From Ruminococcus albus 7 = DSM 20455 (GTDB lineage Bacteria > Bacillota > Clostridia > Oscillospirales > Ruminococcaceae), in contig NC_014833.1 in the NCBI RefSeq assembly GCF_000179635.2, positions 510,001-542,000 on the forward strand: a DNA stretch of 32,000 nucleotides, written 5' to 3'. Of this stretch, positions 210 through 27,856 are shown in pieces (position 1 is the first letter of the stretch; every line of letters starts with the position of its first letter). The position numbers were made by a program, and so were the translations under genes. Under the pieces are notes generated by a model. It saw nothing but the letters and a program-made list of their open reading frames with translations. It ran no database searches and had not been told where the DNA came from.

Positions 210-222
210 TAATAAAAACATT

Positions 223-258: not shown

Positions 259-266
259 GTCCTATA

Positions 267-535: not shown

Positions 536-547
536 GAAAACGTTTAA
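536..547. promoter_or_regulatory. AAACGTTT-core operator-like motif (cgAAAACGTTTaa)
   Basis: This is a CG-centred palindromic core in the 600-bp AT-rich non-coding region upstream of the LacI-family gene. Confidence 0.3.
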
Positions 548-804
548 AAATATGAACAGCCGGCATTTGATGTACGAAAAAATGTACGTTAGAGGGAATA
601 TCTATAAAAGTCGGTAACATTTTATGTAAATTTTGTACACTCATTATTGCGCCTGTTGCTGTTCTGGTAAAAAAATACAGCCCAAAAATTACAAATCAGT
701 TACAGAGCTAACACTTGAATTTACAAAGTGCACAAAAGCGCAAAGGCGTGTTTGTCTATTGCTACATAATTTATTACATCGGGCAGAAAAATTCCAAAAA
801 ACAC

Positions 805-833
805 TTGAAATTTGCACGAAAATATAGTATATT
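805..833 (+). promoter_or_regulatory. Putative sigma-A promoter of the LacI-family regulator and transporter operon
   Basis: TTGAAA (805-810), a 17-nt spacer, then TATATT (828-833). Confidence 0.4.
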
Positions 834-843
834 TCTTATTGGC

Positions 844-856
844 GGAAACGTTTGAG
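844..856. promoter_or_regulatory. AAACGTTT-core operator-like motif (ggAAACGTTTgag) just downstream of the putative -10
   Basis: The motif sits at about +5 to +17 of the predicted promoter, a position consistent with autorepression. A further perfect palindrome, TAAACGTTTA, lies at 877-886 inside the first codons of the gene. Confidence 0.4.
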
Positions 857-862
857 ATAATA

Positions 863-1921: not shown

Positions 1922-1988
1922 GCATTAATCGCGGCACAATGCTGCGAAAACAATAATATGATAATGCAAAATAAGGAGGAAATTTATC

Positions 1989-3371: not shown

Positions 3372-3414
3372 TCAGGAAGAGTTAAGGACTAAATAGTCAA
3401 AAATCAAACAGCTG

Positions 3415-3448
3415 AAACGGGGACGGTAAAACCCGCCCCCGTTTTTCG
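3415..3448 (+). terminator. Intra-operon hairpin followed by a T-run (partial terminator or attenuator between the binding-protein and permease genes)
   Basis: aaacgggg...ccccgttt stem with TTTTT. This is a common arrangement that gives excess binding-protein transcript. Confidence 0.5.
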
Positions 3449-3501
3449 GCTTAAATAAAGATATCAGCAAAAATAAAAAGCAGTTTTAGAGGGTGCATTT
3501 A

Positions 3502-4425
3502 ATGAAACATAAGTCAATCAGCTATGCAAAATGGGGCTACATCTTTGTTATCCCTTTTTTTGCTGTGTTTATTGTTTTTAACCTTTTCCCCCTGCTGTCG
3601 ACATTCAATAATTCTTTGTATGAGTACTATAAATCCAACGGTGTAACTTTTGGACCGAAATGGATTGGACTCCAGAATTATACAAAACTGTTTTCGGCAG
3701 AGGTAAACGTTGGAAAGTATTTCATGAATACTTTCATTATCTGGCTCATGGGCTTTATCCCCCAGATATTCTTCTCTCTCCTGTTCGCTTCATGGTTCAC
3801 TGACCTTAGAATGAAGCTCAAGACAGGTGCATACAAGATCATATTCTATTTGCCTAACGTTATCATGGCAGCTGCAATGGGTATGCTTTTCTTCACAATG
3901 TTTGACCAGAGCGGTCCTATGACAATGCTGCTCAAGCCTTTCACAGGCGGCGTAGCTTATAAGTTCTTTGAGAATGTTTGGTCACAGAGAACTATCATCG
4001 CACTTATCAACTTCATGATGTGGTATGGTAATACTACTATCATGCTGATGGCTGCGATCAACGGTGTGGATCCTTCGCTGTATGAGTCTGCACAGATCGA
4101 CGGTGCTAATCCGTCTCAGACTTTCTGGAATATCACTATTCCTCTTATCAGACCTATCCTTGTTTATGTGCTTATCACATCTCTCATCGGTGGTCTCCAG
4201 ATGTACGACGTTCCTCAGATCATCACCAAAAACGGTGACGCTGTAAACAGAACATCTATGACTATGATCATGTATCTCCAGTATCAGATGAACATAGGTA
4301 AAAACTACGGCTATGCCGGTGCAATATCTGTTGTACTGTTTGTTGTTGCAGCAGCTCTCTCTATGTTGGTATTCTATATCAATTCTGATAAGGATGAGAA
4401 AAAACGTAAGAAGGGAGTGAAGTAA
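3502..4425 (+). CDS. Sugar ABC transporter permease (MalF/UgpA-like)
   Basis: Six predicted TM segments and an EAA-loop-like motif (YESAQIDGANPSQTFWNITIPLIRP). The ATG at 3502 is preferred; the ORF is open from the GTG at 3493. Confidence 0.9.
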   Translation: MKHKSISYAKWGYIFVIPFFAVFIVFNLFPLLSTFNNSLYEYYKSNGVTFGPKWIGLQNYTKLFSAEVNVGKYFMNTFIIWLMGFIPQIFFSLLFASWFTDLRMKLKTGAYKIIFYLPNVIMAAAMGMLFFTMFDQSGPMTMLLKPFTGGVAYKFFENVWSQRTIIALINFMMWYGNTTIMLMAAINGVDPSLYESAQIDGANPSQTFWNITIPLIRPILVYVLITSLIGGLQMYDVPQIITKNGDAVNRTSMTMIMYLQYQMNIGKNYGYAGAISVVLFVVAAALSMLVFYINSDKDEKKRKKGVK

Positions 4426-4427
4426 CA

Positions 4428-5303
4428 ATGGCAGCACCTATCGATGCAGTAGGACAGATGAGTAACTCTAGGGCATTGCTCATCAGAAGAGTAATTTCAT
4501 ACGTTGTATTGACAATATTTGCTATAATTTCACTGTTCCCGTTCTTCATTCTTCTTATCAACATGACTCGTGAATCAGCAGATATTCAGCAGGGATTTTC
4601 TCCTCTGCCAGGTAAATATTTAATAAAGAACTTCAGGGCTGTAATGAACAAGCCTGACTGGGCTATGCTCGCAGCTCTGAGAAACTCGTTTATCATATCC
4701 GCAAGCTGTGCATTCTTATCTTCATATTTTTCAGCACTCACAGCTTATGCGATCCATGTATATGATTTCAAGCTCAAGAAGTTCCTGTTTACATTTATCC
4801 TTATGATAATGATGGTACCTACACAGGTATCTGCACTTGGTTTTGTTCAGATGATGAACGACTGGGGTCTTACCAATAATTTCATACCTCTGATCATTCC
4901 TTCGATCGCTGCTCCTGCTACATTCTTCTTTATGAAGCAATACATGGACAGTGCACTGCCTCTTGAAATAGTTGAGGCAGCTCGAATAGACGGTTGTGGT
5001 GAGTTCAGAACATTCAACTCTCTGGTAACTCCTATTCTGAAGCCTGCATTCGCAGTACAGGGTATATTCATATTCGTATCCAGCTGGAACAACTTCTTTA
5101 TTCCTGCTCTGATACTCGATAAGCCCGAGCTGAGAACTCTGCCTCTGGTTATCAATCTCATCAGATCGGCTGACTATACCAAGTTTGATATGGGTGCGGT
5201 TTATATGGCAGTTGGTATTTCTATCATACCTGTTGCTATCGTATATCTCGTACTTTCCAAGTTCATTATCCGTGGTATCGCCCTCGGCGCTGTTAAGGGT
5301 TAA
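4428..5303 (+). CDS. Sugar ABC transporter permease (MalG/UgpE-like)
   Basis: EAA loop (EAARIDGCGEFRTFNSLVTPILKP) in a polytopic membrane protein. It starts 2 nt after the preceding permease. Confidence 0.9.
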   Translation: MAAPIDAVGQMSNSRALLIRRVISYVVLTIFAIISLFPFFILLINMTRESADIQQGFSPLPGKYLIKNFRAVMNKPDWAMLAALRNSFIISASCAFLSSYFSALTAYAIHVYDFKLKKFLFTFILMIMMVPTQVSALGFVQMMNDWGLTNNFIPLIIPSIAAPATFFFMKQYMDSALPLEIVEAARIDGCGEFRTFNSLVTPILKPAFAVQGIFIFVSSWNNFFIPALILDKPELRTLPLVINLIRSADYTKFDMGAVYMAVGISIIPVAIVYLVLSKFIIRGIALGAVKG

Positions 5304-5625: not shown

Positions 5626-7206
5626 ATGAAAATAACATTCATTGGTGCAAACCATGAGGTAACGGGAAGCTGTACCTACGTTGAAGTCGGTGACAAGAGA
5701 TTTCTTGTGGACTTTGGAATGGAACAGGGTACAGACCTTTATGAAAATGCAAAGATACCATGTTCGCCTTCTGCAATTGATTTTGTTCTGCTGACCCATG
5801 CACATATCGACCATTCGGGACTTCTGCCGCTGTTATATGCAGGCGGATTCTCGGGGAATATACACGCTACAAAGGCTACCTGCAATCTATGTTCCATAAT
5901 GCTGAGAGATTCGGCGCATATACAGGAATTTGAATCTGAGTGGCGAAGCCGTAAGGGCAGACGTAAGGGGCAGGAAGATGTTGAACCTCTGTATACTCTT
6001 GCAGATGCTGAGGGTGCAATATCAAAGCTGACACCTCATCCTTACGGTGAGATGATAGAGTTATGTGAAGGTGTCAAGGTGAGGTTCACTGATGCGGGAC
6101 ATCTTCTTGGTTCGGCAAGCATCGAGCTTTGGCTTACTGAGGGCAGTGAAACCAGAAAGATAGTATTCTCCGGAGATATAGGAAATCTTGACCAGCCGCT
6201 GATACGTGATCCTCAGTACATAGATGGTGCTGATTACGCAGTGATGGAATCGACCTACGGTAATCGCAAACATGAAAAGGTCACGAATTATGTTGAACAT
6301 CTGGCTGAACTGATACAGCGAACATTTGACCGCGGAGGAAATGTTGTGATACCCTCTTTTGCAGTTGGCAGAACACAGGAACTTCTTTATTTCATCAGGC
6401 AGATAAAGGAAAGGGAAATGGTGAAAAATCATGCAAATTTCCCTGTGTATGTGGATTCTCCCCTTGCAATAGAAGCAACAAGGGTATTCATGGAGAACAA
6501 GGAGAACTGCTTTGATGCTGAGGCACTTGAGTATGTTGAAAAGGGTATAAATCCTATTACTTTCCCCGATCTTCATATTGCTGTTACAAGTGACGAATCA
6601 AAGATGATAAACTTCGATAAAACCCCTAAGATAATTATATCCGCCAGCGGTATGTGCGAGGCGGGACGAATCAAGCATCATCTGAAACACAACTTGTGGC
6701 ATAAGGAGAGTCTGGTGCTTTTTGTGGGATATCAGGCTAACAATACTCTGGGCAGAAGCCTTGTTGAGGGTGCAAAGACTGTCAAGCTGTTCGGTGAAGA
6801 AATAAGTGTGGCAGCTGAGATCAGGGTGCTTCCCGGTATCAGCGGTCATGCGGATATCGACGGACTTGACAAGTGGATAGATTCAATGGAGCGCCCGAAA
6901 ACCGTGTTTATAAACCACGGCGAGGATGCTGTTATGGAGGAATACAAGCGTCATCTGGAGGAAAAGGGCTATAATGCCCAGACACCTTACAGCGGTGCGG
7001 AGTGCGACCTTATCACAGGCGTATTCACTCAGGCTGAACCAATAAAGGTGGTAAGAAAAACTGCACCCAGTACCGGATATCAGCGGCTTTGTGCATCGCT
7101 GGACAGACTTTCCGCACTGGTGGCTGCAAGCAAGGGTCTCAACAACAAGGATCTTGCAAAGCTTACGGATTGCATAAACAATCTGTGTGCGAAGTGGGAA
7201 GACTAA
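5626..7206 (+). CDS. MBL-fold metallo-hydrolase of the beta-CASP family (CPSF73-like RNA-metabolising nuclease, not RNase J-like at its N-terminus)
   Basis: HxHxDH motif (LTHAHIDHSG). A beta-CASP-like middle region and a C-terminal H motif (ISGHAD) are present. 526 aa. Confidence 0.8.
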   Translation: MKITFIGANHEVTGSCTYVEVGDKRFLVDFGMEQGTDLYENAKIPCSPSAIDFVLLTHAHIDHSGLLPLLYAGGFSGNIHATKATCNLCSIMLRDSAHIQEFESEWRSRKGRRKGQEDVEPLYTLADAEGAISKLTPHPYGEMIELCEGVKVRFTDAGHLLGSASIELWLTEGSETRKIVFSGDIGNLDQPLIRDPQYIDGADYAVMESTYGNRKHEKVTNYVEHLAELIQRTFDRGGNVVIPSFAVGRTQELLYFIRQIKEREMVKNHANFPVYVDSPLAIEATRVFMENKENCFDAEALEYVEKGINPITFPDLHIAVTSDESKMINFDKTPKIIISASGMCEAGRIKHHLKHNLWHKESLVLFVGYQANNTLGRSLVEGAKTVKLFGEEISVAAEIRVLPGISGHADIDGLDKWIDSMERPKTVFINHGEDAVMEEYKRHLEEKGYNAQTPYSGAECDLITGVFTQAEPIKVVRKTAPSTGYQRLCASLDRLSALVAASKGLNNKDLAKLTDCINNLCAKWED

Positions 7207-7230
7207 AGTATAAACAGGGAGGAACATATC

Positions 7231-7726: not shown

Positions 7727-10132
7727 ATGGCTAAAAAAACCGAGAAGACCATATCAAAGGAGGAACTGAAAAAGCAGTTCATCGAGGTACTGCACAACGA
7801 TTTTCAGACCATACCCGATGAGGCGACCGATAAGCAGGTATACGAGGCACTGTCAAAGATAGTTGTCGGCATACTGAAGACCAAGAGAAGACACTTCACA
7901 ATGGCTACACAGTCTGCGGGCAAGAAGAAGGTGTACTACCTTTCTATGGAATTCCTGATGGGACGTTCTCTCAAGACCTCCCTCTACAATCTGGAAATGA
8001 ACAATCAGGCAAAAGAGATGCTCAAAGATCTGGGTATCTCCATAAATGGTATATACGAGCAGGAACCCGATGCAGGTCTGGGCAACGGTGGTCTTGGCAG
8101 ACTTGCTGCCTGCTATTTGGATGCACTGGCTGCTGACGGCTACCACGCAACAGGTTATTCCATATGCTATGAGTACGGTATCTTTAAGCAGAAGCTGGAA
8201 GACGGCTGGCAGACCGAGCTGCCCGATAACTGGCTCCCCGGTGGTTCAGTATGGCTTGTGCCTTCACCTACTAAGGCTATCGAGGTACGCTTTGACGGCG
8301 AGTTGAAGGAGTATTGGGATAATCAGTACCACTGTGTAACTCATGAGAACTATACTTCCGTTATGGCTGTGCCTTACGACCTGTATGTATCAGGCTACGG
8401 CAGCAAAGCTGTATCCAAGCTGAGATTGTGGAAGGCTGAAATGGCTTCTTTTGATATGCCTTTCTTCAACAAGGGCGACTACGCTAAGGCACTTAGCAAG
8501 AACATAATGTCACAGGCTATCACCAAGGTACTTTACCCAAATGATAACCACGCTGAGGGCAAGAGCCTCAGACTTCGTCAGCAGTACTTCCTTTGTGCAG
8601 CTTCCGTGGGCGATATAGTCCACCAGCATATGTCTGTATACGGTACGCTGGATAATCTGCACGAAAAAGTTGCTATACATATCAACGATACTCATCCTAC
8701 ACTTGCTATCCCCGAACTGATGAGGATACTTCTTGATGACTGCGGTTACAGCTGGGATAAAGCATGGCATATCGTTACAAATACATTCGCATACACCAAC
8801 CATACGGTTATGCCCGAGGCACTGGAGAAGTGGGACTGCAATCTGCTGAAGAGCGTTTGCCCCAGAATATTCTCTATAATCATCGAGATAAATGAGAGAT
8901 ACTGTCGTGATCTGTGGGAGAGATACCGCGACGAGGCGAAGTGCGGCCATATGTCCATAGTTGAGAACAACAAGGTAAAGATGGCTACTCTCTGTGTACA
9001 CGCATCACACAGCGTAAACGGTGTTGCAAAGATACACTCCGAGATAATCAAGAAGGAGACTTTCAAGGACGAATATCTTGATACTCCTACCAAGTTCAAG
9101 AACGTTACAAACGGTATCGCATACAGAAGATGGCTGTATCAGTCTAACGAGGGACTGACCGAACTTCTGAGAGAGAAGATCGGTGACGGTTTCCTTAAAA
9201 ATGCGTCCGAACTCAGCAAGCTGGCTGTATTCAAAAACGATGAAAATGTCCTGAACAGGCTGGCAGAAATAAAGAAAGAAAACAAGGAAAAATTTGCAAA
9301 GTACGTCAAAAACCAGTACGGCGCAGTTCTGAATACTGATTCCATATTCGATGTGCAGGTAAAGAGACTCCACGAATACAAGCGCCAGCAGCTGAATGCG
9401 CTGAACATCATCGCTCAGTACAACTATCTGAAAGCTAATCCCAATGCTGATTTCGTGCCCAAGACCTACATCTTTGCGGCTAAGGCAGCACCAGGATACT
9501 ACATGGCTAAGCAGATAATCAAGCTGATATGGAACATCTCTCAGGAACTGAAAAAGAACGATAAGCTGAGAGAAAAGCTGAATGTTATATTCCTGGAAGA
9601 CTACAACGTATCCCTTTCAGAGATACTGATGCCTGCAGCTGATATCTCCGAGCAGATATCCCTTGCAGGTACTGAGGCAAGCGGTACGGGTAACATGAAG
9701 CTGATGATAAACGGTGCTATCACTCTGGGTACCATGGACGGCGCAAATGTTGAGATACACGAGCAGGTAGGCGATGACAACATCATAATCTTCGGTATGA
9801 ACGTTGACGAGGTAAATTCCTGCAAGGCAGGTTACAGACCTATCGAGATCTATAACAAGAATCAGATAGTAAAGCAGGCTATTGACACTATACAGTACGG
9901 TGTGAACGGAGTACAGTTCCCCGAGATAGCCGATGCACTGAAGAATACAGATACCTACATGGCACTGAAGGATTTCGACAGCTATCAGCAGGCACAGAAG
10001 TACGCAAGCGAGTGCTACGCTGACAAGATGAAGTGGCAGAGAATGAGCCTTGCAAATATCGCAGGCGCAGGCATATTCTCCGCTGACCGTTCTGTTGAAG
10101 AGTACGCAAAGGACATCTGGGGACTGACATAA
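7727..10132 (+). CDS. glgP: Glycogen/starch/alpha-glucan (maltodextrin) phosphorylase, GT35
   Basis: Full-length similarity to GT35 phosphorylases, including EPDAGLGNGGLGRLAAC, INDTHP and the PLP-lysine region EASGTGNMKLMINGA. An AGGAGG RBS precedes the ATG at 7727. Confidence 0.95.
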   Translation: MAKKTEKTISKEELKKQFIEVLHNDFQTIPDEATDKQVYEALSKIVVGILKTKRRHFTMATQSAGKKKVYYLSMEFLMGRSLKTSLYNLEMNNQAKEMLKDLGISINGIYEQEPDAGLGNGGLGRLAACYLDALAADGYHATGYSICYEYGIFKQKLEDGWQTELPDNWLPGGSVWLVPSPTKAIEVRFDGELKEYWDNQYHCVTHENYTSVMAVPYDLYVSGYGSKAVSKLRLWKAEMASFDMPFFNKGDYAKALSKNIMSQAITKVLYPNDNHAEGKSLRLRQQYFLCAASVGDIVHQHMSVYGTLDNLHEKVAIHINDTHPTLAIPELMRILLDDCGYSWDKAWHIVTNTFAYTNHTVMPEALEKWDCNLLKSVCPRIFSIIIEINERYCRDLWERYRDEAKCGHMSIVENNKVKMATLCVHASHSVNGVAKIHSEIIKKETFKDEYLDTPTKFKNVTNGIAYRRWLYQSNEGLTELLREKIGDGFLKNASELSKLAVFKNDENVLNRLAEIKKENKEKFAKYVKNQYGAVLNTDSIFDVQVKRLHEYKRQQLNALNIIAQYNYLKANPNADFVPKTYIFAAKAAPGYYMAKQIIKLIWNISQELKKNDKLREKLNVIFLEDYNVSLSEILMPAADISEQISLAGTEASGTGNMKLMINGAITLGTMDGANVEIHEQVGDDNIIIFGMNVDEVNSCKAGYRPIEIYNKNQIVKQAIDTIQYGVNGVQFPEIADALKNTDTYMALKDFDSYQQAQKYASECYADKMKWQRMSLANIAGAGIFSADRSVEEYAKDIWGLT

Positions 10133-17831: not shown

Positions 17832-18695
17832 ATGCGAAAATACAAATTATTGATAGTGGCTTTTGTACTTGTGGTGGTGGGTATGCTTTGCGGATGCAGC
17901 TACAACGAATCTATAGATATTGAATGTGATGGACTGGAAGAAGACGAAAGAGTATTTGTGCTGGTAAAACCAACAGATGATGATGAACTGAGAACGCCCG
18001 ATGATGCTGATATTACCGGTTCGGAGATATATACTGCGGGTAAAGACGGCTTTGTTTTGGCAGAACAGCTGCGTGAGCCTATTTCGGTAAAAATTAGCGA
18101 TGAACAGCCTCAGCTTAATTGCTCCCTAATTTTCAAAAATTCAGAATCAAGGAGAAATTTCTGCGAAAAACATAAGGTTATACGTCTGGCGGTGTGTGAC
18201 GACAGGTGGCGTATAAAGAAGATCAGCGATGATATCGATGTTTTCTTTCCCGAAGAATATGAGGTACTTGACGCAGGAAGATACTATGTTGGAACGGGTG
18301 CATTTGAAAATACAGATATAGTCAGCGCCATTGATACAAGCCGCGTGAGAGCGTCAGGTGCCGTCCTGTGTTTTGCGGCGTTCTTTTTGCTATGGCCGAT
18401 CAACGCAGTACAATTTATCGTTATGCTGGTGATGACTTCCAAAAAGCGACAATCAAAACCGAGGAATGTGTTTCTGTGGTTCGGGGTACTGAGTGTTCCA
18501 AACCTGTTTTTTTCAAAGCTCTATCTGAGCGCAGTGGACGTGTTCGATCTGATATTACATAATAGCCGTTCATTACCAGATGCTTTGAGCGGGTTATTGT
18601 TAATTGATTTTCCTTGGCTTGCGGAATTGCTGCTATTGCTTGTATGGTATATATTCCTCAGGCAGAAAGATGATGTGATGTATAAAGGATGTTGA
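17832..18695 (+). CDS. Hypothetical lipoprotein-like membrane protein
   Basis: The ATG at 17832 gives MRKYKLLIVAFVLVVVGMLCGC (signal peptide plus lipobox-like LCGC). The C-terminal third has about three hydrophobic helices. No family was recognised. Confidence 0.55.
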   Translation: MRKYKLLIVAFVLVVVGMLCGCSYNESIDIECDGLEEDERVFVLVKPTDDDELRTPDDADITGSEIYTAGKDGFVLAEQLREPISVKISDEQPQLNCSLIFKNSESRRNFCEKHKVIRLAVCDDRWRIKKISDDIDVFFPEEYEVLDAGRYYVGTGAFENTDIVSAIDTSRVRASGAVLCFAAFFLLWPINAVQFIVMLVMTSKKRQSKPRNVFLWFGVLSVPNLFFSKLYLSAVDVFDLILHNSRSLPDALSGLLLIDFPWLAELLLLLVWYIFLRQKDDVMYKGC

Positions 18696-18724
18696 AACGG
18701 AGATAATAAAACCGATATACTGTT

Positions 18725-18756
18725 TCGCCGCAGAACACTCTGCGGTGATTTTTTTT
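18725..18756 (+). terminator. Rho-independent terminator
   Basis: Stem tcgccgcaga / tctgcggtga followed by TTTTTTTT. Confidence 0.75.
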
Positions 18757-18902
18757 CGTGAGATACTACCTGTTGGGTCAGACTGATGACACAAAATGCT
18801 AAATATGCCGAATCTCAAAGAAAAGGGTTAGTCAATATGCTGTAAAAGAGGGGCGGGCTTTTGTGCAAAAGGGTAATTGTTCGTACACATTTTCATAAAA
18901 TA

Positions 18903-18932
18903 TTGACTTGATAAGCTCGGGTGTGATATAAT
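18903..18932 (+). promoter_or_regulatory. Putative strong extended -10 promoter of the dynamin operon
   Basis: TTGACT, an 18-nt spacer, then TGaTATAAT. Confidence 0.55.
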
Positions 18933-19026
18933 TTATAGTGATATAAAATTACTCGCTGCCACGATGTTCCGAACGGCTGCGGCAGTCTGAATGTGTATAA
19001 TATTTTTTGAAAACGGAGGTCAATCC

Positions 19027-21153
19027 ATGGAAAAGCAGATCAATTATGGAAGCTATGCAGGCTATAAGGAAACCGTAGGAAACCTTACTGCCGATCTGCA
19101 GGAGCTTCTGAAGCTCAGCGAAGAGATAGCTTTGGTCAATACCGCCGAATCTATAAAGGAGACGCTTGAAAAGGCTAAGGACGAGCATTTCGAGGTCGCT
19201 ATCGTCGGTGAGTTCAAGAGAGGTAAAAGTACGCTGATAAACGCACTCCTCGGTCAGGAAGTACTGCCTGCCGATGTTCTGCCTGCGACCGCTACCCTTA
19301 ACAGAGTTACTTACAGCACAGAGCCTTATGTTCAGGTCGAGTATAAGAATGGTGAATCCGAGCGTGTTGAGATAGACAGGCTTGAGGAGTATGTCACCAA
19401 GCTGACAAGTGAGTCTGAACGCAAGGCGGAAACTGTAAAGGAAGCAACGGTATACTACGATACCGAATTCTGCCGTAATAACGTGGATATAATCGACACT
19501 CCCGGTCTTAATGATGACGATCAGATGACAAATGTTACCATGTCTATCATACCCAAGATAGATGCGGCTGTTTTCGTTATAAGTGCGAATTCTCCGTTTT
19601 CACAGTTTGAGAAGGAGTTCCTCGAAAAGAAGATGCTTACCTCCGATGTGGGACGTATCATATTCGTTGTAAACTGTTTCGGTACCTTCACTCAGGACGA
19701 TGAGAACAAGATAGTTGAAACTGTACGTACCCGTATCGGTAAGTACGTTATGGAAAAGGCGAAGAAGGTCATGGGCGAGGACAGCCGTGAGTTCGCCGTA
19801 TATAAGAGAAAGATAGGCACACCGAGAGTTATCGGTGTGTATGCGAAGCGTGCCCTGACAGCTAAAACTTCGGGCGATCAGGCGCTGCTGGAGGAATCTA
19901 ATTTCCCTGAGTTTGAAAATGCACTTGAAACTCTGCTTACTCAGGAACGCGGTGTTATCACTCTCCAGATACTTGCAAACAAGATCACTAATTCGGGTAC
20001 CGAGATACTGCGTTCGATAGTAATGCAGGAGAATGCCCTGATGATGGCTAATGATGAATTCATGGAGAAGTACGATGCTGCCATCAAGGAGATCGATGAG
20101 ATCAGAAATATGAAGCGTTCTGAGTTCGTTAAGATCAATGACGCTGCTAATAAGGTGTTCGAGGATCTGCGTCCTGTACTTGATAATTACTGGAGCAATA
20201 TCGAGGAGGCAGCTATGGAAGTTATCGACAACTTCCAGATGTCTTCTGACGATTTCAAGAAGGACAGGCTCAAACTCGTAAGCTCCAAGCTCACCGAGAA
20301 GATCAAGGAGAGCATGGAAGTAAGAGCGCAGCTGATCTGCGAGCAGATACAGAACAGCATAAATCAGGCTGTAAGCGGTGAGACTGAGAGACTGCAGGAA
20401 TTCGAGGACGAGTTCTTCGAGAGCGTTGCAGCTATCCAGAGGATGTTTGCAGTATCCGACAGAGTATCTTCAAACGGCGGTACACTGGATAAGGTGATAG
20501 GTGCGGCTACCGGTGCTTACGGCGTAGGCGGTGTATATCTGGGATTCAGAGAATCAGGCATAAAGGGCGCACTGCTGGGCGGCGCTACGGGTCTTGCGGG
20601 CTTCTATGCTACCTACTACGCAGCTATGTTCTTTTCGGGCTTCTTCGGTCTGACAGGCGGTCTGCCGGTCATGCTGGTAATGATGGCATTTGCAGGTATC
20701 GCAGGTACCTTTACGTCTAACTTCGCAGTGGACAAGATACTCGTTCAGGAGAGGATAGATAAGTACAAGACCAACTTCAAGGCTAATGTCAAGAAGCAGT
20801 TCCACGAGATGAAGCTGAACAACGACTTCACTGAGACAGTAAGACGTCAGGTATTCTCCTCATTCGACAGCATCAAGAGCAAGATCGAGGAAGAGACCGA
20901 GATCATACTGAGGGATACACAGGAAACACTGGATAACCTCAATGATCTAAAGGCAGAGAAGTCCGAAGTATCCCAGAAGGAGATGGAAAGACTTCACGTT
21001 ATCGCAGAGACTGCCAGCAAGCTGGTTCAGGATGCTTATGCTGTAAGAAAGGTCCTCAACGACGAGATAAGCATAAACAATCCTCAGGCTGAAAAGACCG
21101 AGAAGACAGAACAGACCGAGCAGGAAGAAAAGGCAGAAAATACTGAAAAATAA
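19027..21153 (+). CDS. Bacterial dynamin-like GTPase with a C-proximal glycine-rich membrane-insertion region
   Basis: G1 GEFKRGKST (19207-19230), G3 DTPGLND (19495-19506) and a long helical stalk. A Gly/Ala-rich hydrophobic block of about 85 aa lies at roughly 20470-20735, followed by a coiled-coil and an acidic EKTEKTEQTEQEEK tail. A GGAGGT RBS precedes the ATG at 19027. Confidence 0.85.
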   Translation: MEKQINYGSYAGYKETVGNLTADLQELLKLSEEIALVNTAESIKETLEKAKDEHFEVAIVGEFKRGKSTLINALLGQEVLPADVLPATATLNRVTYSTEPYVQVEYKNGESERVEIDRLEEYVTKLTSESERKAETVKEATVYYDTEFCRNNVDIIDTPGLNDDDQMTNVTMSIIPKIDAAVFVISANSPFSQFEKEFLEKKMLTSDVGRIIFVVNCFGTFTQDDENKIVETVRTRIGKYVMEKAKKVMGEDSREFAVYKRKIGTPRVIGVYAKRALTAKTSGDQALLEESNFPEFENALETLLTQERGVITLQILANKITNSGTEILRSIVMQENALMMANDEFMEKYDAAIKEIDEIRNMKRSEFVKINDAANKVFEDLRPVLDNYWSNIEEAAMEVIDNFQMSSDDFKKDRLKLVSSKLTEKIKESMEVRAQLICEQIQNSINQAVSGETERLQEFEDEFFESVAAIQRMFAVSDRVSSNGGTLDKVIGAATGAYGVGGVYLGFRESGIKGALLGGATGLAGFYATYYAAMFFSGFFGLTGGLPVMLVMMAFAGIAGTFTSNFAVDKILVQERIDKYKTNFKANVKKQFHEMKLNNDFTETVRRQVFSSFDSIKSKIEEETEIILRDTQETLDNLNDLKAEKSEVSQKEMERLHVIAETASKLVQDAYAVRKVLNDEISINNPQAEKTEKTEQTEQEEKAENTEK

Positions 21154-21198
21154 TGAAGATGTGGATGCGCAGAACATTCCAATAAGGGAGGACACTCA

Positions 21199-22179
21199 AT
21201 GAGTGACATAAATGCGAAAGTCAATCCGCTTCTTCAGATCGACACGGGTTTTCGTTCTTACCTGAAAGCCTACACGAGGTCGTATCAAAGCCATATGGTA
21301 GACGGCAGTCTTGACTATGCCTTTGAGTCCGACTTTGCGGTAAGGCAGAAGATAATGAGTCTGGGGGGCAGCGCTAAGCTGTTCAAGGCGGTAAATACAC
21401 AGGATATATCGGCGGAAGCTAAGCATCTGTTCGTTAAGTGCGATCAGGTCGGACCGCTGAAGTATCCCGAGATATATGATAAGGTCAAAAAATGTGCTGA
21501 ACGTCTGGAACTTATCGTACCGATAGTATTCATTCGCGAGGACATGAACAGACCGCTGGCATATTCTATCACCAGCGATCTGATAGAGCCGTGTATAGTA
21601 CTGACGAAGCAGTTGGTAGAGCTATGCAGCGATGATGAGCTCATGCTGCTTATCGGCAGCGAATGCGGCAGGGTACAGAATAACCACTGTACCTTTAATA
21701 TGGCATATACTTACCTCAAAGTAAATAATGAGGTGTTCAGACCCGTTGAAAGGTTCTATACACAGACTATAGGCAGCCAGCTTTATTCTGCGCTGGTACA
21801 GTGGGTCAGATACGCAGATGTTACTGCGAACCGCGCAGGTATAATATGTCTGGATAAGCCCGGACAGTACCTTAAAATAATGTGCGGACTTTACCGTAAG
21901 GGATATGTGGATTTCTACGGCCGTTCCGGAGCAGGCATCAAATATGATGAACTGAGCTGGCTGAGTGAACAGATACACGGAAGTACTTCAAGAAATCTCA
22001 GCATCAGCAAGGATCTTACGGATATAGAGAGGAGCCTGCTGGCAAGTAATGAATTCTTATACTGCAAAACGCTTTATTCGTGGCGCGAGGACGTTGTGGA
22101 TATGGAGGGTCACGCTGAGAGCGGGCAGATATGTGACGTGCGCACAAGCGTTATCGTCGGGAACGGAGGTCAGCTATGA
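21199..22179 (+). CDS. Hypothetical protein resembling an M48 (HtpX/Ste24-type) metallopeptidase domain with a degenerate zinc site
   Basis: GGGAGGA RBS. DELMLLIGSECGRVQNNH (21658-21687 covers SECGR...H) aligns by eye with the M48 xxLxxVLAHExxHxxxxH region, with both His residues replaced (S and R). RYADVTANRAG (21808-21840) sits where the M48 SRxxExxADxxA motif lies. The stop overlaps the next start (ATGA). Confidence 0.6.
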   Translation: MSDINAKVNPLLQIDTGFRSYLKAYTRSYQSHMVDGSLDYAFESDFAVRQKIMSLGGSAKLFKAVNTQDISAEAKHLFVKCDQVGPLKYPEIYDKVKKCAERLELIVPIVFIREDMNRPLAYSITSDLIEPCIVLTKQLVELCSDDELMLLIGSECGRVQNNHCTFNMAYTYLKVNNEVFRPVERFYTQTIGSQLYSALVQWVRYADVTANRAGIICLDKPGQYLKIMCGLYRKGYVDFYGRSGAGIKYDELSWLSEQIHGSTSRNLSISKDLTDIERSLLASNEFLYCKTLYSWREDVVDMEGHAESGQICDVRTSVIVGNGGQL

Positions 22180-23948
22180 AAGATAATGAGAATGTAATGG
22201 CTGCCGACGAAAATATCAGTACTGTCAGAGAACAGCTCAGTGAGATAATCGAAGATGACAAGATAGCTGAGATACTTGGCAGGGAGTGCGTAGAGCAGCT
22301 GAAGGAGTTCAGGGCGCTGGTGGATAAAAGGCGCGAGGAGCCCTTCACGCTTGTAATACTGGGTGATTTCAAACGCGGCAAAAGCACGATAATCAATGCT
22401 CTGCTGGGCAAGAAGATCGCACCTATAAACGTTACACCCGAAACTTATACGATAAATGAGATCTCCTTTGGTCATACACAGACAGTTGAAGCTATACTTG
22501 AAAACGGTCAGAGAGTACCGCTGGTGCTTGAGGACATAACAAGAGAGAATCTTGAGAAGCGTATGAAGCTGTTCCCTGCGAAGATAAGCTGTGTACAGAT
22601 CAAGGATAATGCACCTATACTGAAAAATATAAGGATAGTTGATACTCCCGGTCTATCAGACCTGGAGAGCCTTGACAAGCAGGTGCAGGACTATATCGTG
22701 AATGCGGATGCAATAATGTATGCTGCAAGCTGTCTGCTGCCTTTTTCGGAATCTGAGCAGGTCTTTCTGGCAACACACGTATCGCCTCAGAGATTCGGTA
22801 TGCTGTATGTGCTGGTCAATATGATCGATGCGCTGAATACTATGGCAGACGTTAATAAAATAATGCGAAGATTCAGGGGCATCTCAGAGAGAATAGTGCC
22901 TAACGCTTTTGTGTACGGTATAAGCGGCGGTGATGAGCTGAAGCGTAAGCTTGGTGAAGAAAGACCCGCAGATAAAGGAACGAGAGAGTTCTATGAAACG
23001 CAGTTTTTCCAGTTTGAGCTTTCGCTGAACAGAGATATCATAATGCAGAAGGATGTTATACGCTCAAAGCGTGTACTGACTATGCTGGATCGTATGCACG
23101 CTGAGATAAGCTCGCGTCTAAGAATGATAAGTGATATGGCTGAGATGGACAAGCAGCTGCTTGAGGATAAGGCAAAGGAGTTCGAGCAGCAGTGCGATGA
23201 ACTTGCGGCTGAGCTTGAAAAGAGAAAGCCTGTGCTTCATCTTTCTATACTGGAGATGCAGCAGGAAGCGGAAACATGGATGTATGAGTTCTTTGCGAAG
23301 CTGAGGACGAGTATACTGGAATGCAGGGCTAAGGACGATATGGGCGAAGATATCTATTCGCCTGAGGATATAGAGAAGTATTTCTACTCATTCCTTATGG
23401 AAAAGGTAGGAGAAGCTTACCGTACCTGCATAGAGTGTCACAGAGATGCTATAACTGAGCTTACGGATAAGATGAGCCGTGAAATGGCAAGTGCACTTGG
23501 GATAACGAATGTAGCGGAAGTCAGCAAAGCACCGTCGGTAGACAGACTGATGATGTCAGCCAACAAGAACGTTACAAGAAGTGTTATGGGTGTCAAGCTT
23601 TTCGGTACAAGTGAGAATTTCTCACCTGCAGCGATGAGTACCTTCTCACTTATAATGAAGAAGAAAAAGCAGACGGATATCATAGATATCGCACTTGAGA
23701 ACTATGATGAGATAAGAATAAATATCGTCAAGGATATCAAGACCGTTTATCAGGATCTGGAAGTAAAGGCTATCTCCAGACTGGAAAGTCTTTACAAATA
23801 TCAGGTCGAGCTTAGCAGGAATGCTATAGATCAGGCTAAGGAAATGGTGGATAACGAGGACAAGAGCGAGCTTCTTGAAACCCTCGCAGATGCTTTGAAG
23901 CGTCTTGAAGCACCGAAGAAGATACTTGATGCTAACCTGCCTGCGTAA
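22176..23948 (+). CDS. Bacterial dynamin-like GTPase (soluble paralogue)
   Basis: G1 GDFKRGKST (22362-22385), G3 DTPGLSD (22641-22652), G4-like NMID, and a helical stalk. No long hydrophobic block. The ATG at 22176 overlaps the upstream TGA. Confidence 0.85.
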   Translation: MKDNENVMAADENISTVREQLSEIIEDDKIAEILGRECVEQLKEFRALVDKRREEPFTLVILGDFKRGKSTIINALLGKKIAPINVTPETYTINEISFGHTQTVEAILENGQRVPLVLEDITRENLEKRMKLFPAKISCVQIKDNAPILKNIRIVDTPGLSDLESLDKQVQDYIVNADAIMYAASCLLPFSESEQVFLATHVSPQRFGMLYVLVNMIDALNTMADVNKIMRRFRGISERIVPNAFVYGISGGDELKRKLGEERPADKGTREFYETQFFQFELSLNRDIIMQKDVIRSKRVLTMLDRMHAEISSRLRMISDMAEMDKQLLEDKAKEFEQQCDELAAELEKRKPVLHLSILEMQQEAETWMYEFFAKLRTSILECRAKDDMGEDIYSPEDIEKYFYSFLMEKVGEAYRTCIECHRDAITELTDKMSREMASALGITNVAEVSKAPSVDRLMMSANKNVTRSVMGVKLFGTSENFSPAAMSTFSLIMKKKKQTDIIDIALENYDEIRINIVKDIKTVYQDLEVKAISRLESLYKYQVELSRNAIDQAKEMVDNEDKSELLETLADALKRLEAPKKILDANLPA

Positions 23949-23954
23949 TAAAAT

Positions 23955-23988
23955 AAGCCCGCGGAAGAGATCCGTGGGCTTTCTTTTA
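23955..23988. terminator. Intrinsic terminator between convergent genes
   Basis: Stem aagcccgcgga / tccgtgggctt followed by TTCTTTTAT. Confidence 0.7.
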
Positions 23989-23998
23989 TGTTATAGTA

Positions 23999-25075
23999 TT
24001 ATGAGTTGCTAGTGATGATGTCAATGATTATCCTGCTTATTAGCACCAAAAGATATATTATGATAGCAGGTCTGGTAAAGACGGCTTTTGTCACGGCCTT
24101 TTTCTCGACGGATGACTGACCGTCATACGTCCCGAAATAGCTTGCTCTTGTCATTAGTACGTAGAATCCTATCATAGCAACAGCTATCTGCGCTGTGCTG
24201 TTTATGGTGTCGATATGAGGGATCTTCATTGCATTACCGATGGTATATATACTTACAACGGTATTGTTAAGTGCGTGTATTATCAGCGATGGCAGTATCG
24301 AGCCGCTGCCGACTGCGACACAGGCATACATAAGCCCTGTGCCAAATGCAGACACCGCCTGAGGGATATTGCCGTGCATCAGTCCGAAACACAGCGATGA
24401 CAGCAGTATAGCAGTAAATTCGCCGTATTTTGTAAGAGTTCCGAGTATCATTCCGCGGTATACGGTTTCCTCTATGAACGGTGCGATTATGCAGAGATAC
24501 AAAAATTCAAACAATATCGCTGCTGTCGATGGCGTTTTTATTGAGAAATCAGCTTCGGGGATGGTAACTCCTGCCGAATCCATGATATGGACAAAAGCGT
24601 TTATTGCCACTGACAGGAAAACATTTGCTACAAAGCAGGCAGGGAAGTAGTGAAGTCCTTTTTTTGCTCCGTCTGCCGATGGTTTCAGATATCCGTTAAA
24701 GCTGAAACCCAGGACGATGCAGCCGAAAAGCAGGGTGATGATAAGCGAAGTGATAGTTACGGACGAATTGAACACCATAGCGTATGTTGTGGATTGTATT
24801 ACATCCTTGTAATCGCTTTGCAGCAGCTCTGCCGCACTTGTGTACGAGAGCATCTTACCCGAAAGAAAACGGCAGCTAAGGATAATGAAGATCATGTTAA
24901 CGAAATAAGATGTCAGCAACCTGTATGTTATCAGCATGGCGCCAAGCTTCAGGCAATCGTTCTTCAATGCTGTCATATCAGTATTTTCTATGTTATGCTG
25001 AACATATGCTGTTCTGTTGAACAAAAAGCAATCAGCTCCTTTATTTATATAATATAACAGTATATCACATTTCAC
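23999..25075 (-). CDS. CPBP-family intramembrane glutamic endopeptidase (CAAX protease / Abi family)
   Basis: Motif 1 FIEETVYRG, motif 2 FGLMHGN, motif 3 IIHALNN, in a polytopic membrane protein. The start is uncertain: the GTG at 25075 opens the ORF, and the ATG at 24976 is an alternative. Confidence 0.85.
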   Translation of the reverse strand: MKCDILLYYINKGADCFLFNRTAYVQHNIENTDMTALKNDCLKLGAMLITYRLLTSYFVNMIFIILSCRFLSGKMLSYTSAAELLQSDYKDVIQSTTYAMVFNSSVTITSLIITLLFGCIVLGFSFNGYLKPSADGAKKGLHYFPACFVANVFLSVAINAFVHIMDSAGVTIPEADFSIKTPSTAAILFEFLYLCIIAPFIEETVYRGMILGTLTKYGEFTAILLSSLCFGLMHGNIPQAVSAFGTGLMYACVAVGSGSILPSLIIHALNNTVVSIYTIGNAMKIPHIDTINSTAQIAVAMIGFYVLMTRASYFGTYDGQSSVEKKAVTKAVFTRPAIIIYLLVLISRIIIDIITSNS

Positions 25076-25088
25076 TTCAAAAGTAAAG

Positions 25089-25338
25089 CCCTCGCGCGGG
25101 TACGCAGTACGTCATACGCATGGTAAGTTCGGGTAGTATGTTTCTCGGTGCCCATTGTAAGCTATAAAGAAGACCCGGTGACCCTCGCGCGGGTACGCAG
25201 TACGTCACGCCCATGGCAAGTTCGGGTAGTATGTTTCTCGGTGCCCATTTTAAGCTGTAAAGAAGACCCAGTGACCCTTGCGCGGGTACGCAGTACGTCA
25301 TGCCCATGGCAAGTTTGGAGAGTATGTTTCTCGGTGCT
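25089..25338. repeat. Tandem repeat with a 93-bp unit, 2.7 copies
   Basis: Units start at 25089, 25182 and 25275, each with ccct(c/t)gcgcgggtacgcagtacgtca. Copies 1 and 2 differ at about 7 of 93 positions. The third copy is truncated after ...tttctcggtgc. Confidence 0.9.
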
Positions 25339-25565
25339 GACAAATATAAATTAACGAACTGATTAAATATAGAACAACCGAAAAGTTCATAAAACTGATT
25401 TCTGAACCATTCAATGCTTTTCTTTTAATTGTCAGGCTTATAAATAAATGTAAAGGCGGATATATCAGGATCATACGTATTTAAGCTATTAATAGATATG
25501 GATAATACAGTACACTATCTTAATAAAAAATATCCATATTTTACGTCAAATGTGCACGATGTGAG

Positions 25566-25593
25566 TTGACCTGTGGATGATTTTTTGTATAAT
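25566..25593 (+). promoter_or_regulatory. Putative promoter of the xylanase gene
   Basis: TTGACC, a 16-nt spacer, then TATAAT. Confidence 0.45.
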
Positions 25594-25676
25594 GAAATAA
25601 CAAAATAAGGAACGTGCTAATTTTACTCAACAGAAAGTAAAAGTTTTTAGGCACGACGGAATAAGGAGGAATTAGT

Positions 25677-27856
25677 ATGAAAATCTCATCAAGCGTAAAA
25701 AAGCTATCTTCTGCGATGCTTGCGGGCGCAGTGCTTTTTCGCAGACCGCGTTTCTGTCAAACGTGACGATCGAGGCAGAAGCTGCAAGCCTTTGCACTGT
25801 AAACGTTAACAAAACTTATCAGAAGATCGACGGCTTCGGCGGTATCAATCACCCGGAGTGGTACGGTGATCTGACTGATTCAGATCGTGCTATTGCTTTT
25901 GAAAACGGCAATAACCAGCTGGGTTGTACGATCCTGAGAGTATTTGTAAACCCTGACAAAAACCAGTGGTACAAAGTTCTCCCGACAGCACAGTATGCTG
26001 CTAAGAGAGGCATCACCATTTTCGCTTCACCTTGGGAGCCGCCCGCAAGTCTGGCTGAAAACGGTTCTGCTTACGGCGGTAAGCTCCATCTTCCAAGAAA
26101 AAATTACGGAGCATACGCTCAGCACCTTAATGATTTCGGTAAATACATGAAGCAGAACGGCGTTAATCTGTATGCTATCTCTGTACAGAACGAGCCGGAC
26201 TACGCTAAGGACTGGACAGCTTGGACACCGGACGAGACTACTGACTTCATTGCTAACTATGGCGACCAGATAACCAGCACAAAGCTCATGTCGCCAGAAT
26301 CATTCCAGTATGGCGCATATAACAACGGTAAGGACTACTACTCAAAGATCCTTAATAACTCAAAGGCTTATGCAAACTGTGACATATTCGGAACTCACTT
26401 CTACGGCACACCCAGAAGTAAGATGGACTTCCCGGCACTTGAAAACTGCGGCAAACAGCTGTGGATGACTGAAGTATATGTTCCTGACAGCAATGTCGAT
26501 TCAAACATATGGCCTGATAACCTGAAGCAGGCTGTAAGCATTCATGATTCACTGGTTGTAGGCGGTATGCAGGCTTACGTTGTATGGCCGCTTCGCCGTA
26601 ATTACAGCATTCTCCGTGAAGATACACACAAGATATCAAAGCGTGGTTATGCTTTTGCACAGTACTCAAAGTTCGTTCGTCCCGGCGATGTTCGTGTAGA
26701 TGTCACTGAGCAGCCTTCATCTAACGTTTTTGTATCTGCATACAAGAACAATAAGAATCAGGTAACTATCGTTGCTATCAATAACAGCAGTTCAGGTTAT
26801 TCACAGCAGTTCTCACTGAACGGCAAGACCATAATCGATGTTGACAGATGGCGCACATCAGGCAGCGAGAACCTGGCTGAGACCGATAATCTCACTATCG
26901 ACAATGGTACAAGCTTCTGGGCACAGCTTCCCGCACAGAGCGTTTCTACTTTCGTATGCACACTTAGCGGCGGCAGCTCTTCCGGCAACAACGGTTCATC
27001 CAATACAGAGCTTGATTCTGACGGTTACTACTTCCACGATACATTTGAGGATGATTTAACATGGCAGGCACACGGCGGCACAGAACTGCTGAAGTCCGGC
27101 AGAACTCCCTATAAGGGCAGCGAAGCTGTTGTAGTTACTAACCGTACAAGTGCATGGATGGGTGCAGAGCGTACACTTCCTTCTTCTGTCGTTCCCGGCA
27201 AGACCTACAGCTTCTCTGTAAACGTAACAGAGCTTGATGGTGAGGATACCGAAACATTCTATCTCAAGCTCAACTATACCGATTCAAGCGGAACAGCACA
27301 CTATCCTACAATTGCAGAGGGTGTTTGCCCCAAGGGCAAGTATCTGCAGCTCAGCAATACTAATTATACCATCCCCTCTGATGCAGTTGACCCTGTTATC
27401 TATGTAGAAACCAAGGATACCACTTCTAACTTCTACATTGATGAAGCTATCTGTGCTCCTGCAGGCAAGAGTCTGCCCGGCGCAGGTATCCCTGAGATAC
27501 CCAGCAATAACAATAACAACAATAACAACAATAATAACAATAATAACAACAATAATAACAACAACCAGAACAACTCGGTATATCCGGTTGTATCATCTAT
27601 TGATTACAACGTGACATACCATCAGTTCAGAATAAGCTGGAATTCTGTTCCAAATGCTCAGGCATACGGTATCGCATACTATGCAGCAGGCAAGTGGAGA
27701 GTATATACTCAGAGTATCTCTGTGAATACTACTTCATGGATCTCTCCCAAGCTGACAGCAGGCAAGACCTATACCATGGTAATAGCAGCCAAGGTCGGCG
27801 GTAAGTGGGATACTTCTAATCTGTCTTCAAGAGCTATAAATGTTACTGTAAAGTAA
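25677..27856 (+). CDS. xynC: GH30 subfamily 8 glucuronoxylanase (XynC-like) with a CBM22/CBM_4_9-like module, a poly-Asn linker and a C-terminal ~90-aa module; the reading frame is interrupted between signal peptide and catalytic domain
   Basis: The catalytic domain is collinear with B. subtilis XynC: GFGG, SVQNEPDY (acid/base), LWMTEVY (nucleophile), WPLRRNY. An AAGGAGGA RBS and the ATG at 25677 encode MKISSSVKKLSSAMLAGAVLF in frame 0. The main ORF (GTG-opened at 25763) is in frame 2, and the frames join cleanly at the T5 run at 25735-25739. Confidence 0.85.
27506..27574 (+). repeat. AAY trinucleotide microsatellite encoding a 20-Asn run followed by QNN (inter-domain linker)
   Basis: 20 consecutive AAT/AAC codons at 27506-27565, then CAG AAC AAC. 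Confidence 0.9.

Follow-up and report, generated by a model that had tools for sequence, protein, structure and literature searches.

A zinc-ligand-less M48 homologue encoded between two dynamin-like GTPase genes in Ruminococcus albus 7

The window analysed here is a stretch of 32,000 nucleotides from the genome of Ruminococcus albus 7 = DSM 20455 (contig NC_014833.1, positions 510,001 to 542,000), and all coordinates given below are positions in that window. The gene at 21199..22179 (+) encodes a soluble protein of 326 amino acids (aa), named M48L in this work, in which all three zinc ligands of the M48 metallopeptidases are replaced. It is flanked by two genes for dynamin-like proteins (DLPs), which we call DLP-A and DLP-B. 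M48L is very probably a ligand-less M48 homologue that selection has kept as part of a dynamin module, and sequence comparison suggests that the window carries a catalytically disabled version of an ancient and widespread dynamin–M48–dynamin module. A sequence-only reading of the window had placed an open reading frame (ORF) with an M48-like fold between two dynamins. The placement was confirmed, as both flanking genes encode Dynamin_N proteins (Pfam E=1.8e-33 for DLP-A and E=2.3e-21 for DLP-B).

M48L matched the Pfam family Peptidase_M48 (PF01435) with an E-value of 2e-5 and 24.9 bits, above the curated cut-off of 20.3, and the match placed residues 90-227 on profile positions 5-160 of 186. 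The NCBIfam HtpX models matched M48L weakly, and the best match in the viral library was a phage ‘Peptidase M48’. The closest homologues carry Ruminococcus names, and some homologues are already named ‘M48 family metalloprotease’ by NCBI; the family name was thus known, and the pseudo-enzyme status is new. A single-sequence phmmer search of M48L against the PDB gave one irrelevant match (E=1.6), and a profile of 29 homologues aligned liGsEcGriqnnH on vlAHEiGHwqkNH of Ste24p weakly (E=0.21). The link from M48L to the M48 family was therefore made via relatives with intact motifs. An exhaustive profile search of 1.84 billion representative proteins returned 1104 relatives of M48L at E<=1e-3. In the alignment of the top 150, nearly all sequences from about E=1e-54 downward carried IGHECGHIHNxH and (A/S)E(V/I)T(A/C)DRAG. 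In these intact relatives, which share about 30% identity or less with M48L, HExxH and the third-ligand Glu are both canonical.

HHalign of the M48L clade against the HExxH-intact relatives gave a probability of 100% and an E-value of 1.2e-56 over 310 columns at 30% identity, with SECGR placed under HECGH and YADVT under AAEVT. The intact relatives themselves matched Pfam M48 with E-values of 1.7e-18 to 1.3e-24 (67-88 bits). Their profile matched the HtpX domain 3cqb (E=6.5e-9) and Ste24p 4il3 (E=1.9e-6), with HExxH aligned in both. In the Ste24p alignment, the column of the third-ligand Glu ended on chain residue 390, and in a second, individually non-significant Ste24p stretch sHPllakR was paired with SHPTLAER.

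The AlphaFold model of M48L had a pLDDT of 85.3 and a pTM of 0.85. It showed strands at residues 109-113, 121-124, and 132-136, followed by a helix at 145-160, which carries the motif, and a helix at 193-217, which carries D207. The core order of the zincin/gluzincin fold (β-sheet, active-site helix, glutamate helix) is thus present. In a Foldseek search of the PDB, the model matched Ste24p first (probability 1.00, E=2.4e-3) and also ZMPSTE24. The HtpX domain (template modelling (TM) score 0.71, root-mean-square deviation 2.4 Å over 90 columns) was followed by BlaR1 and minigluzincins, and all matches of high probability were M48, M56, or minigluzincin proteins. These results confirmed that M48L is a real M48 relative in sequence and fold.

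Ligand positions in M48L were assigned by homology, through the alignment chain to the intact relatives, Ste24p, and HtpX. The active-site helix remnant, DELMLLIGSECGRVQNNH, covers residues 146-163 (21634..21687, +). Its motif reads S154-E155-C156-G157-R158, in which S154 stands for the first His and R158 for the second His, and E155 is the catalytic-base Glu, which is retained. The third-ligand (‘glutamate’) helix remnant, RYADVTANRAG, covers residues 204-214 (21808..21840, +). Here D207 replaces the zinc-binding Glu and lies 52 residues after E155, and N211 replaces an Asp that is conserved in intact relatives. The C-terminal HPxxxxR motif, seen as HPxxxxRI in intact relatives and as SHPTLAER in Ste24p, is lost: in HHalign, the intact HPl~~rRi aligned with ~~~ErrilA of the M48L clade, which has no His-Pro. 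The Pfam match of M48L ended at profile position about 160, compared with about 183 in intact relatives, and a residue comparison of the two clades agreed with the loss. With H154S, H158R, E207D, and the loss of HPxxxxR, M48L would be unable to bind a catalytic zinc, and from this we infer a loss of proteolysis.

Residue counts were made on the 120 closest cluster representatives at >=51% identity, from 132 homologous clusters. All 120 are without the His pair. Position 154 is Cys in 67, Ser in 36, Ala in 9, Gly in 4, and other residues in 4 (Val, Met, Ile, and Glu occur), and is never His. Position 158 is Arg in 112, Lys in 7, and His in 1. Position 207 is Asp in 108 and Glu in 11, compared with Glu in 98% of intact relatives. 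Position 211 is Asp in 64, Asn in 26, Gly in 8, Tyr in 6, and other residues in the remainder, compared with Asp in >=90% of intact relatives. In contrast to these positions, E155 is found in 120/120, as are Q160, N161, and H163. The sequence-only reading had described every catalytic ligand as replaced, which holds for the three metal ligands S154, R158, and D207 and fails for the invariant general base. It had placed the third-ligand motif about 50 residues downstream, in agreement with the spacing found, and the SECGR-type variant, which it had left to be compared with homologues, proved to be conserved among them. The change of Asp to Asn that it had noted is real in M48L but is not clade-wide; D211N is specific to the sub-lineage of the R. 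albus gene. Its prediction of a protein with no obvious transmembrane helices was also borne out: no transmembrane segment was found in M48L, for which the maximum Kyte-Doolittle 19-residue mean was 0.94.

Residues conserved in both the intact and the ligand-less clades are F18, Y40, D45, C99, E147, G153, E155, C156, G157, N161, H163, W202, T209, R212, A213, and C217. As nearly all other cleft residues are kept in both clades, the metal site was selectively removed and the cleft preserved in the M48L clade. C99, C156, and C217 are present in >=90% of sequences of both clades, and C289 and C312 in >93% of the ligand-less clade (the Cys set is encoded at about 21493-22134). These five residues might form a structural metal or disulfide site. 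Such a metal site, if real, would confound a simple zinc-content reading of M48L. Elsewhere in the family, the first His is independently replaced by Arg or Asn (e.g., RECGH, NELGH) in scattered members (P0148, P0197, P0202, P0210, P0212, P0214, P0220, P0231, P0236, P0240, and P0269). These scattered replacements suggest that the dynamin-linked M48 sub-family is prone to yielding ligand-deficient members.

A neighbour-joining tree of 165 family members grouped the 40 sequences without the ligands in one clade, which was recovered in 100/100 bootstraps of a 90-taxon subset. This clade was found in Ruminococcus and other Oscillospiraceae, and its tree is consistent with ligand loss as a single ancient event. 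Three basal members (P0125, L071, and P0118) keep Glu at position 207, and P0124 and P0111 keep the second His. As these basal members retain Glu207 or the second His, the zinc site came apart stepwise, with the first His lost first and the change of Glu to Asp following later.

Three relatives at 77-87% identity were compared with the M48L gene by the Nei-Gojobori method. The ratio of nonsynonymous to synonymous substitution rates (dN/dS) was 0.05-0.11, and the proportions of differing nonsynonymous and synonymous sites were pN 0.08-0.15 and pS 0.58-0.72, respectively. The flanking DLP genes gave dN/dS of 0.03-0.09 for the same pairs. Among 29 homologues spanning 51-87% identity, 65 columns were invariant. 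Purifying selection acts on the M48L gene as strongly as on the two dynamin genes.

The gene layout ties M48L to its neighbours. DLP-A (708 aa) occupies 19027..21153 (+), with its start taken as the ATG behind GGAGG (the mechanical ORF begins at 18991), and DLP-B (590 aa) occupies 22176..23948 (+). All three genes lie on the same strand. The gap between DLP-A and M48L is 46 nt, M48L has the ribosome-binding site AAGGGAGG upstream of its ORF, and its stop codon overlaps the ATG of DLP-B at 22176 (ATGA, a 4-nt overlap). A promoter-like site lies upstream at 18903..18932 (+), with TTGACT, an 18-nt spacer, TATAAT, and a TG-extended −10; at 11/12 consensus matches it is the best of the region, a consensus match being no proof of function. 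The terminator of the preceding gene, at 18725-18748, lies before it. The unit ends in an intrinsic-terminator-like hairpin at 23955..23981 (+), which lies 7 nt past the DLP-B stop codon, has 11 pairs (7 G-C), and is trailed by a T-rich stretch. With a single promoter-like site, the ATGA overlap, and a single terminator, DLP-A, M48L, and DLP-B look like one transcription unit, and the overlap is consistent with stoichiometric co-production of M48L and DLP-B.

Both DLPs have GTPase-competent G1 and G3 motifs (GEFKRGKS and DTPG in DLP-A, GDFKRGKS and DTPG in DLP-B). DLP-A matched Nostoc BDLP1 (2j68) over nearly its whole length (residues 38-662, E=4.8e-28), and DLP-B matched BDLP1 with E=4.9e-14. 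Hydropathy analysis predicted a membrane paddle in DLP-A, where a paddle-like hydrophobic segment lies at about residues 533-564, and showed no hydrophobic segment in DLP-B.

The sequence-only reading had missed that an intact M48 between dynamin genes appears to be the ancestral and widespread state. Species-representative genomes were scanned with intact-clade patterns, by which 552 stretches were confirmed and 80 loci returned; these loci are biased towards intact motifs and are uninformative on the frequency of degenerate copies. They came from Oscillospiraceae, Lachnospiraceae, and other Clostridia, from Cyanobacteria (Nostoc, Aetokthonos, Vasconcelosia), and from Chloroflexota, Acidobacteriota, Proteobacteria (including Klebsiella and Accumulibacter metagenome-assembled genomes), and Myxococcota/Bradymonadales. 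The DLPs were detected by one mixed DLP profile, and the A and B types were assigned by gene position and length only. In Bacillota, Cyanobacteria, Chloroflexota, Proteobacteria, and Acidobacteriota, intact relatives are closely flanked by dynamin-like genes on both sides, and the Myxococcota group has a DLP on the downstream side only. In ORF and hidden Markov model analysis, most of the loci L001-L071 had a DLP gene on either side of the M48 gene, at no more than about 50 nt on the upstream and about 30 nt on the downstream side. The M48 gene lies between DLPs in 10/10 degenerate loci and in the majority of the 83 intact ones. Gaps within the triad are <=50 nt without exception in the degenerate loci and, across phyla, in most of the intact ones. 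By a stricter count, DLPs were present on both sides in 6/6 informative degenerate loci and 42/62 informative intact loci. One HExxH-intact gene, P0132, lies between DLPs of 698 aa and 587 aa with overlapping stop and start codons. The island that carries it also has integrases, a resolvase, and MobC, and a further DLP and zinc-ribbon genes lie upstream.

Such an additional upstream DLP separates the two kinds of module. Among Bacillota loci with >=5.5 kb of upstream sequence, it was present in 35/36 intact loci and in 0/6 degenerate loci. The third DLP of the intact Bacillota modules is about 570-620 aa long and lies 2-3 kb upstream of DLP-A. In L005 (2126-10210) and L006, the sole pair examined gene by gene, the third DLP is separated from DLP-A by two zinc-ribbon (DZR) genes, and integrase, resolvase, and MobC genes flank the entire group. 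As the degenerate clade is monophyletic, the difference counts as a single event, and the catalytic ligands and the third DLP were both lost in the same lineage. No gross difference was seen between the partner DLPs of intact and degenerate modules in length, G1 position, or G1/G3 motifs.

A complete degenerate triad was also present at 175-4984 of a record from human faeces (L092, MT836781.1, ‘UNVERIFIED: Bacteriophage sp.’). It comprises a DLP of 685 aa, a GCECGRLQNRH protein of 325 aa, and a DLP of 579 aa, and adjoins an integrase and a MazF/PemK-like toxin gene, identified by eye (5807-7228 (−) and 8199-8678 (−)). This scaffold could represent an integrative element or else bacterial DNA that was mis-binned. 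The plasmid search gave only distant soluble M48 relatives without dynamin neighbours, L090 (Thermus) and L091 (Tsukamurella), with 27-34% identity over 66-80% of the query. One of the two adjoins HNH endonuclease and toxin–antitoxin genes, and the other clusters with Hsp70 and GrpE. As these relatives are without dynamin neighbours, the dynamin link is specific to one M48 sub-family. Complete genomes of E. coli gave no match. The solved Nostoc BDLP1 was considered as a module member and rejected, since the similarity of 2j68 to the DLPs of the Nostoc locus L054 is that of a distant paralogue and covers just the GTPase half (E of about 1e-31 to 1e-34).

Natural fusions join the M48 domain to a dynamin. 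In P0222, a singleton cluster of 906 aa, an intact Peptidase_M48 domain (3.8e-24) is joined to Dynamin_N (1.8e-28) and a bacterial DLP helical domain. A homology search gave three further full-length fusions of 888-901 aa (P0271, P0272, and P0273). The four are 53-71% identical to each other and share the gapless junction ...IIKVVGL-x-M-x-LE-x-FHERR..., in which the Met that once started the DLP can still be recognised. HExGH, E..DRAG, HPWxPKR, G1, and G3 are retained in all of them. They are metagenomic proteins, and their nearest unfused DLPs come from Sorangium and Polyangiaceae. The four sequences make up a genuine fusion lineage of diverged proteins with a conserved in-frame junction, which speaks for the M48 domain and the DLP behind it acting as a single unit. 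The same coupling may extend to the distantly related R. albus clade.

Several points weigh against M48L being a non-catalytic subunit or regulator of the dynamin pair, the role proposed below. The Foldseek E-values were modest, with the best at 2.4e-3 and none at <=1e-3, and the whole-chain TM score to Ste24p was 0.31; the sequence chain therefore bears most of the weight for M48 homology. The dS values of 1.1-2.9 are near saturation, so that dN/dS is approximate, although the gap between pN and pS is clear. The fusions come from a distant sub-family, probably of Myxococcota, with intact peptidase motifs. A pure scaffold would not be expected to retain E155 throughout, so that some residual or altered chemistry is conceivable, and Asp207 and Cys154, which is frequent in the clade, might in principle still coordinate a metal.

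Four other explanations were weighed. The motif match could be a coincidence without M48 homology, as the phmmer search of the PDB and the Foldseek threshold of 1e-3 would allow. The Pfam score, the HHalign result, the HtpX and Ste24p matches with motifs aligned, and the Foldseek ranking refute this, and we give it practically no credence. Nor does a decaying allele or pseudogene have any appreciable probability. It draws on the distant homologues that keep HExxH and the third-ligand Glu, and the sequence-only reading had held that intact homologues would mark this copy as a decayed allele. Distant homologues do retain HExxH, but decay does not follow, because the loss of the His pair is clade-wide, the clade is monophyletic, and the gene is under purifying selection. 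The intact ORF, the ribosome-binding site, the translational coupling, and the low dN/dS of M48L itself further refute decay, as do the intact ORFs in 132 clusters.

M48L may instead still be an enzyme, either with E155 as base and R158 as electrophile, or with a metal site rebuilt from Cys154, Cys156, His163, and Asp207. Both clades show little or no variation at E155, N161, H163, T209, and R212, the active-site helix is under strong purifying selection, Cys is the commonest residue at position 154 (67/120), and Asp207 is a competent metal ligand. However, position 154 is too variable for an obligate ligand and is Ser in M48L, Arg or Lys at 158 cannot coordinate zinc, position 211 is free to vary, and the C-terminal HPxxxxR is gone. 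To our knowledge, no metal-independent M48 enzyme has been reported. We regard altered catalysis as distinctly improbable. It is also unlikely, to a marginally lesser degree, that the triad is a relative of Eleos (LeoA/LeoBC) that defends against phage or stress, the dead peptidase acting as its sensor or decoy. The cleft would then bind a phage- or damage-derived peptide and switch on the dynamins, which makes this explanation a special case, with another trigger, of the adaptor model discussed below. Both DLPs match PADLOC LeoA and LeoBC (3.6e-22 / 1.6e-20 and 9e-13 / 2.3e-9, with no curated threshold), but these matches may reflect general dynamin similarity, and M48L has no PADLOC match. 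Intact modules lie between integrase, recombinase, and MobC genes, the degenerate triad L092, on an ‘unverified bacteriophage’ scaffold, has integrase and MazF-like genes close by, and L002 has an integrase immediately upstream. In contrast, the R. albus neighbourhood consists of housekeeping and carbohydrate-metabolism genes without defence or mobile-element genes, and the same is true for L001, L004, and L089. A two-gene dynamin system protects against jumbo phages (10.1101/2022.05.11.491447). Eleos as described has two genes and no protease, and the triad here has three genes.

On balance we lean towards M48L as a cytosolic, non-catalytic subunit, adaptor, or regulator of the heterotypic dynamin pair that flanks it. 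The translational coupling and the conservation of the triad in every relative examined give this idea indirect support, as do the natural M48–dynamin fusions and the near-complete retention of the non-ligand active-site residues. Binding of M48L to the DLPs, and a regulatory effect on them, would follow from this role. The ancestral module would have consisted of a dynamin, an active M48 peptidase, and a second dynamin, with the peptidase physically coupled to the downstream dynamin. The active enzyme may have processed a component of the module, by analogy with OMA1 and OPA1, or may have been brought to a membrane site by the DLPs. In the lineage of Ruminococcus and other Oscillospiraceae, the third dynamin and the peptidase chemistry would then have been lost, and the protein, its cleft residues, and its place in the operon kept, so that a binding role alone remained. 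In R. albus, the three genes would be co-transcribed, with M48L and DLP-B translationally coupled. M48L would dock on the DLP pair, most likely on DLP-B, and its vestigial cleft (E155, N161, H163, T209, and R212) would hold a peptide segment uncut. The held peptide may modulate the assembly, GTPase activity, or membrane engagement of the DLPs.

A bolder proposal, which we hold tentatively and consider rather doubtful, is that the module is an unrecognised and widespread bacterial machine. M48 would be a physical subunit of a heterotypic dynamin pair, the essential contribution of the peptidase would be binding or scaffolding and not proteolysis, and the module would be a prokaryotic counterpart of OMA1–OPA1. 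If so, the Ruminococcus clade would be a natural separation-of-function mutant showing which of the two contributions is essential, and published models of BDLP pairs in Cyanobacteria, Bacillota, and Proteobacteria would miss a component.

M48L shares with the M48 family (HtpX, Ste24/ZMPSTE24, Oma1, BepA; PF01435) the same fold, a recognisable sequence family, an active-site helix with the catalytic Glu and a His at +9 from the first ligand, and a downstream helix with the third-ligand position. It differs in having Ser/Cys, Arg, and Asp at the zinc-ligand positions, in the lost HPxxxxR, and in the absence of a membrane anchor or signal peptide. Further differences are its N-terminal (about 90 aa) and C-terminal (about 100 aa) regions, which are peculiar to its family and contain conserved Cys, and the position of its gene between those of two dynamins. 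The intact dynamin-linked soluble M48 proteins (P0132, loci L005-L086) have the same length (roughly 320-340 aa), and their genes lie between DLPs of about 690 aa and about 590 aa, often with overlapping stop and start codons. Unlike M48L, they keep IGHECGHIHNxH, AE(V/I)T(A/C)DRAG, and HPxxxxR, in Bacillota they almost always have a third DLP upstream, and they often adjoin integrases. The degenerate LytM factors EnvC and NlpD are pseudo-peptidase regulators that have lost metal ligands and bind proteins. They resemble M48L as a metallopeptidase fold without metal ligands kept as a regulator of another machine, but differ in their M23 fold, periplasmic location, and amidase partners.

The mitochondrial M48 peptidase OMA1 cleaves the dynamin-like GTPase OPA1 (PMC2806285). 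This pairing of an M48 peptidase with a membrane-remodelling GTPase of the dynamin superfamily is a precedent for a functional link. However, OMA1 is active, membrane-embedded, and acts in trans on OPA1, whereas M48L is soluble and ligand-less. The paired DLPs of other bacteria (Nostoc BDLP1, Campylobacter DLP1/DLP2, Bacillus subtilis DynA, LeoABC/Eleos) resemble the R. albus genes in having two DLP genes in one operon, one partner with a membrane paddle and one without. The published pairs are side-by-side genes, sometimes with HcpA-like, HSR1, or DnaK neighbours (PMC6104087, PMC5827413, PMC4159319), and none is described with an M48 gene between the DLPs. The reviews and structural papers on bacterial DLPs consulted here mention no peptidase (PMC4159319, PMC6104087, PMC5827413, 10.1101/2025.05.27.656310). 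No description of an M48 gene in a bacterial dynamin operon, or of a bacterial M48 pseudo-enzyme, was found in the open-access and bioRxiv literature, where the dynamin–M48–dynamin module thus appears to be undescribed.

The rest of the window encodes a LacI-type regulator, sugar ABC permeases, a beta-CASP RNase, glycogen phosphorylase, histidyl-tRNA synthetase, a pseudouridine synthase, an ABC ATPase, a CPBP/Rce1-like protease, a protein with GH30 and carbohydrate-binding module (CBM) domains, an AraC-type hybrid regulator, and a GGDEF protein. Ste24, of the M48 family, and Rce1 are the two eukaryotic CAAX-processing proteases. The Rce1-like CPBP intramembrane protease gene (Pfam 1.9e-20; 23999-25075, −) is convergent to the triad. 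A gene of this type is also present downstream of the triad in the closest relative, L088, but absent in L087 and L089, and its position is probably a coincidence. Between this gene and the GH30/CBM gene, the intergenic DNA contains a tandem repeat (25089-25337) with a 93-bp unit, 2.7 copies, and 92% matches, which accounts for internally repetitive spurious ORFs there. The Rfam scan of 18500-25800 gave no match, including in the repeat. The GH30-like protein at 25763-27856 (+) contains CBM_4_9 and a run of >20 consecutive Asn as an inter-domain linker.

Bacterial DLPs have been studied singly or as pairs, with proposed roles that include membrane repair, vesicle release, and phage tolerance. 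A soluble M48 protein whose gene lies between or beside paired dynamin genes in six or more phyla, and which in some cases is fused to a dynamin, is a candidate third subunit or regulator of these systems. Automatic naming as ‘M48 family metalloprotease’ is a problem for annotation, since it extends to proteins without all three zinc ligands. For the dynamin module itself, the ligand-less Ruminococcus lineage may serve as a natural experiment in which the structural role of the M48 protein is split from its catalytic role.

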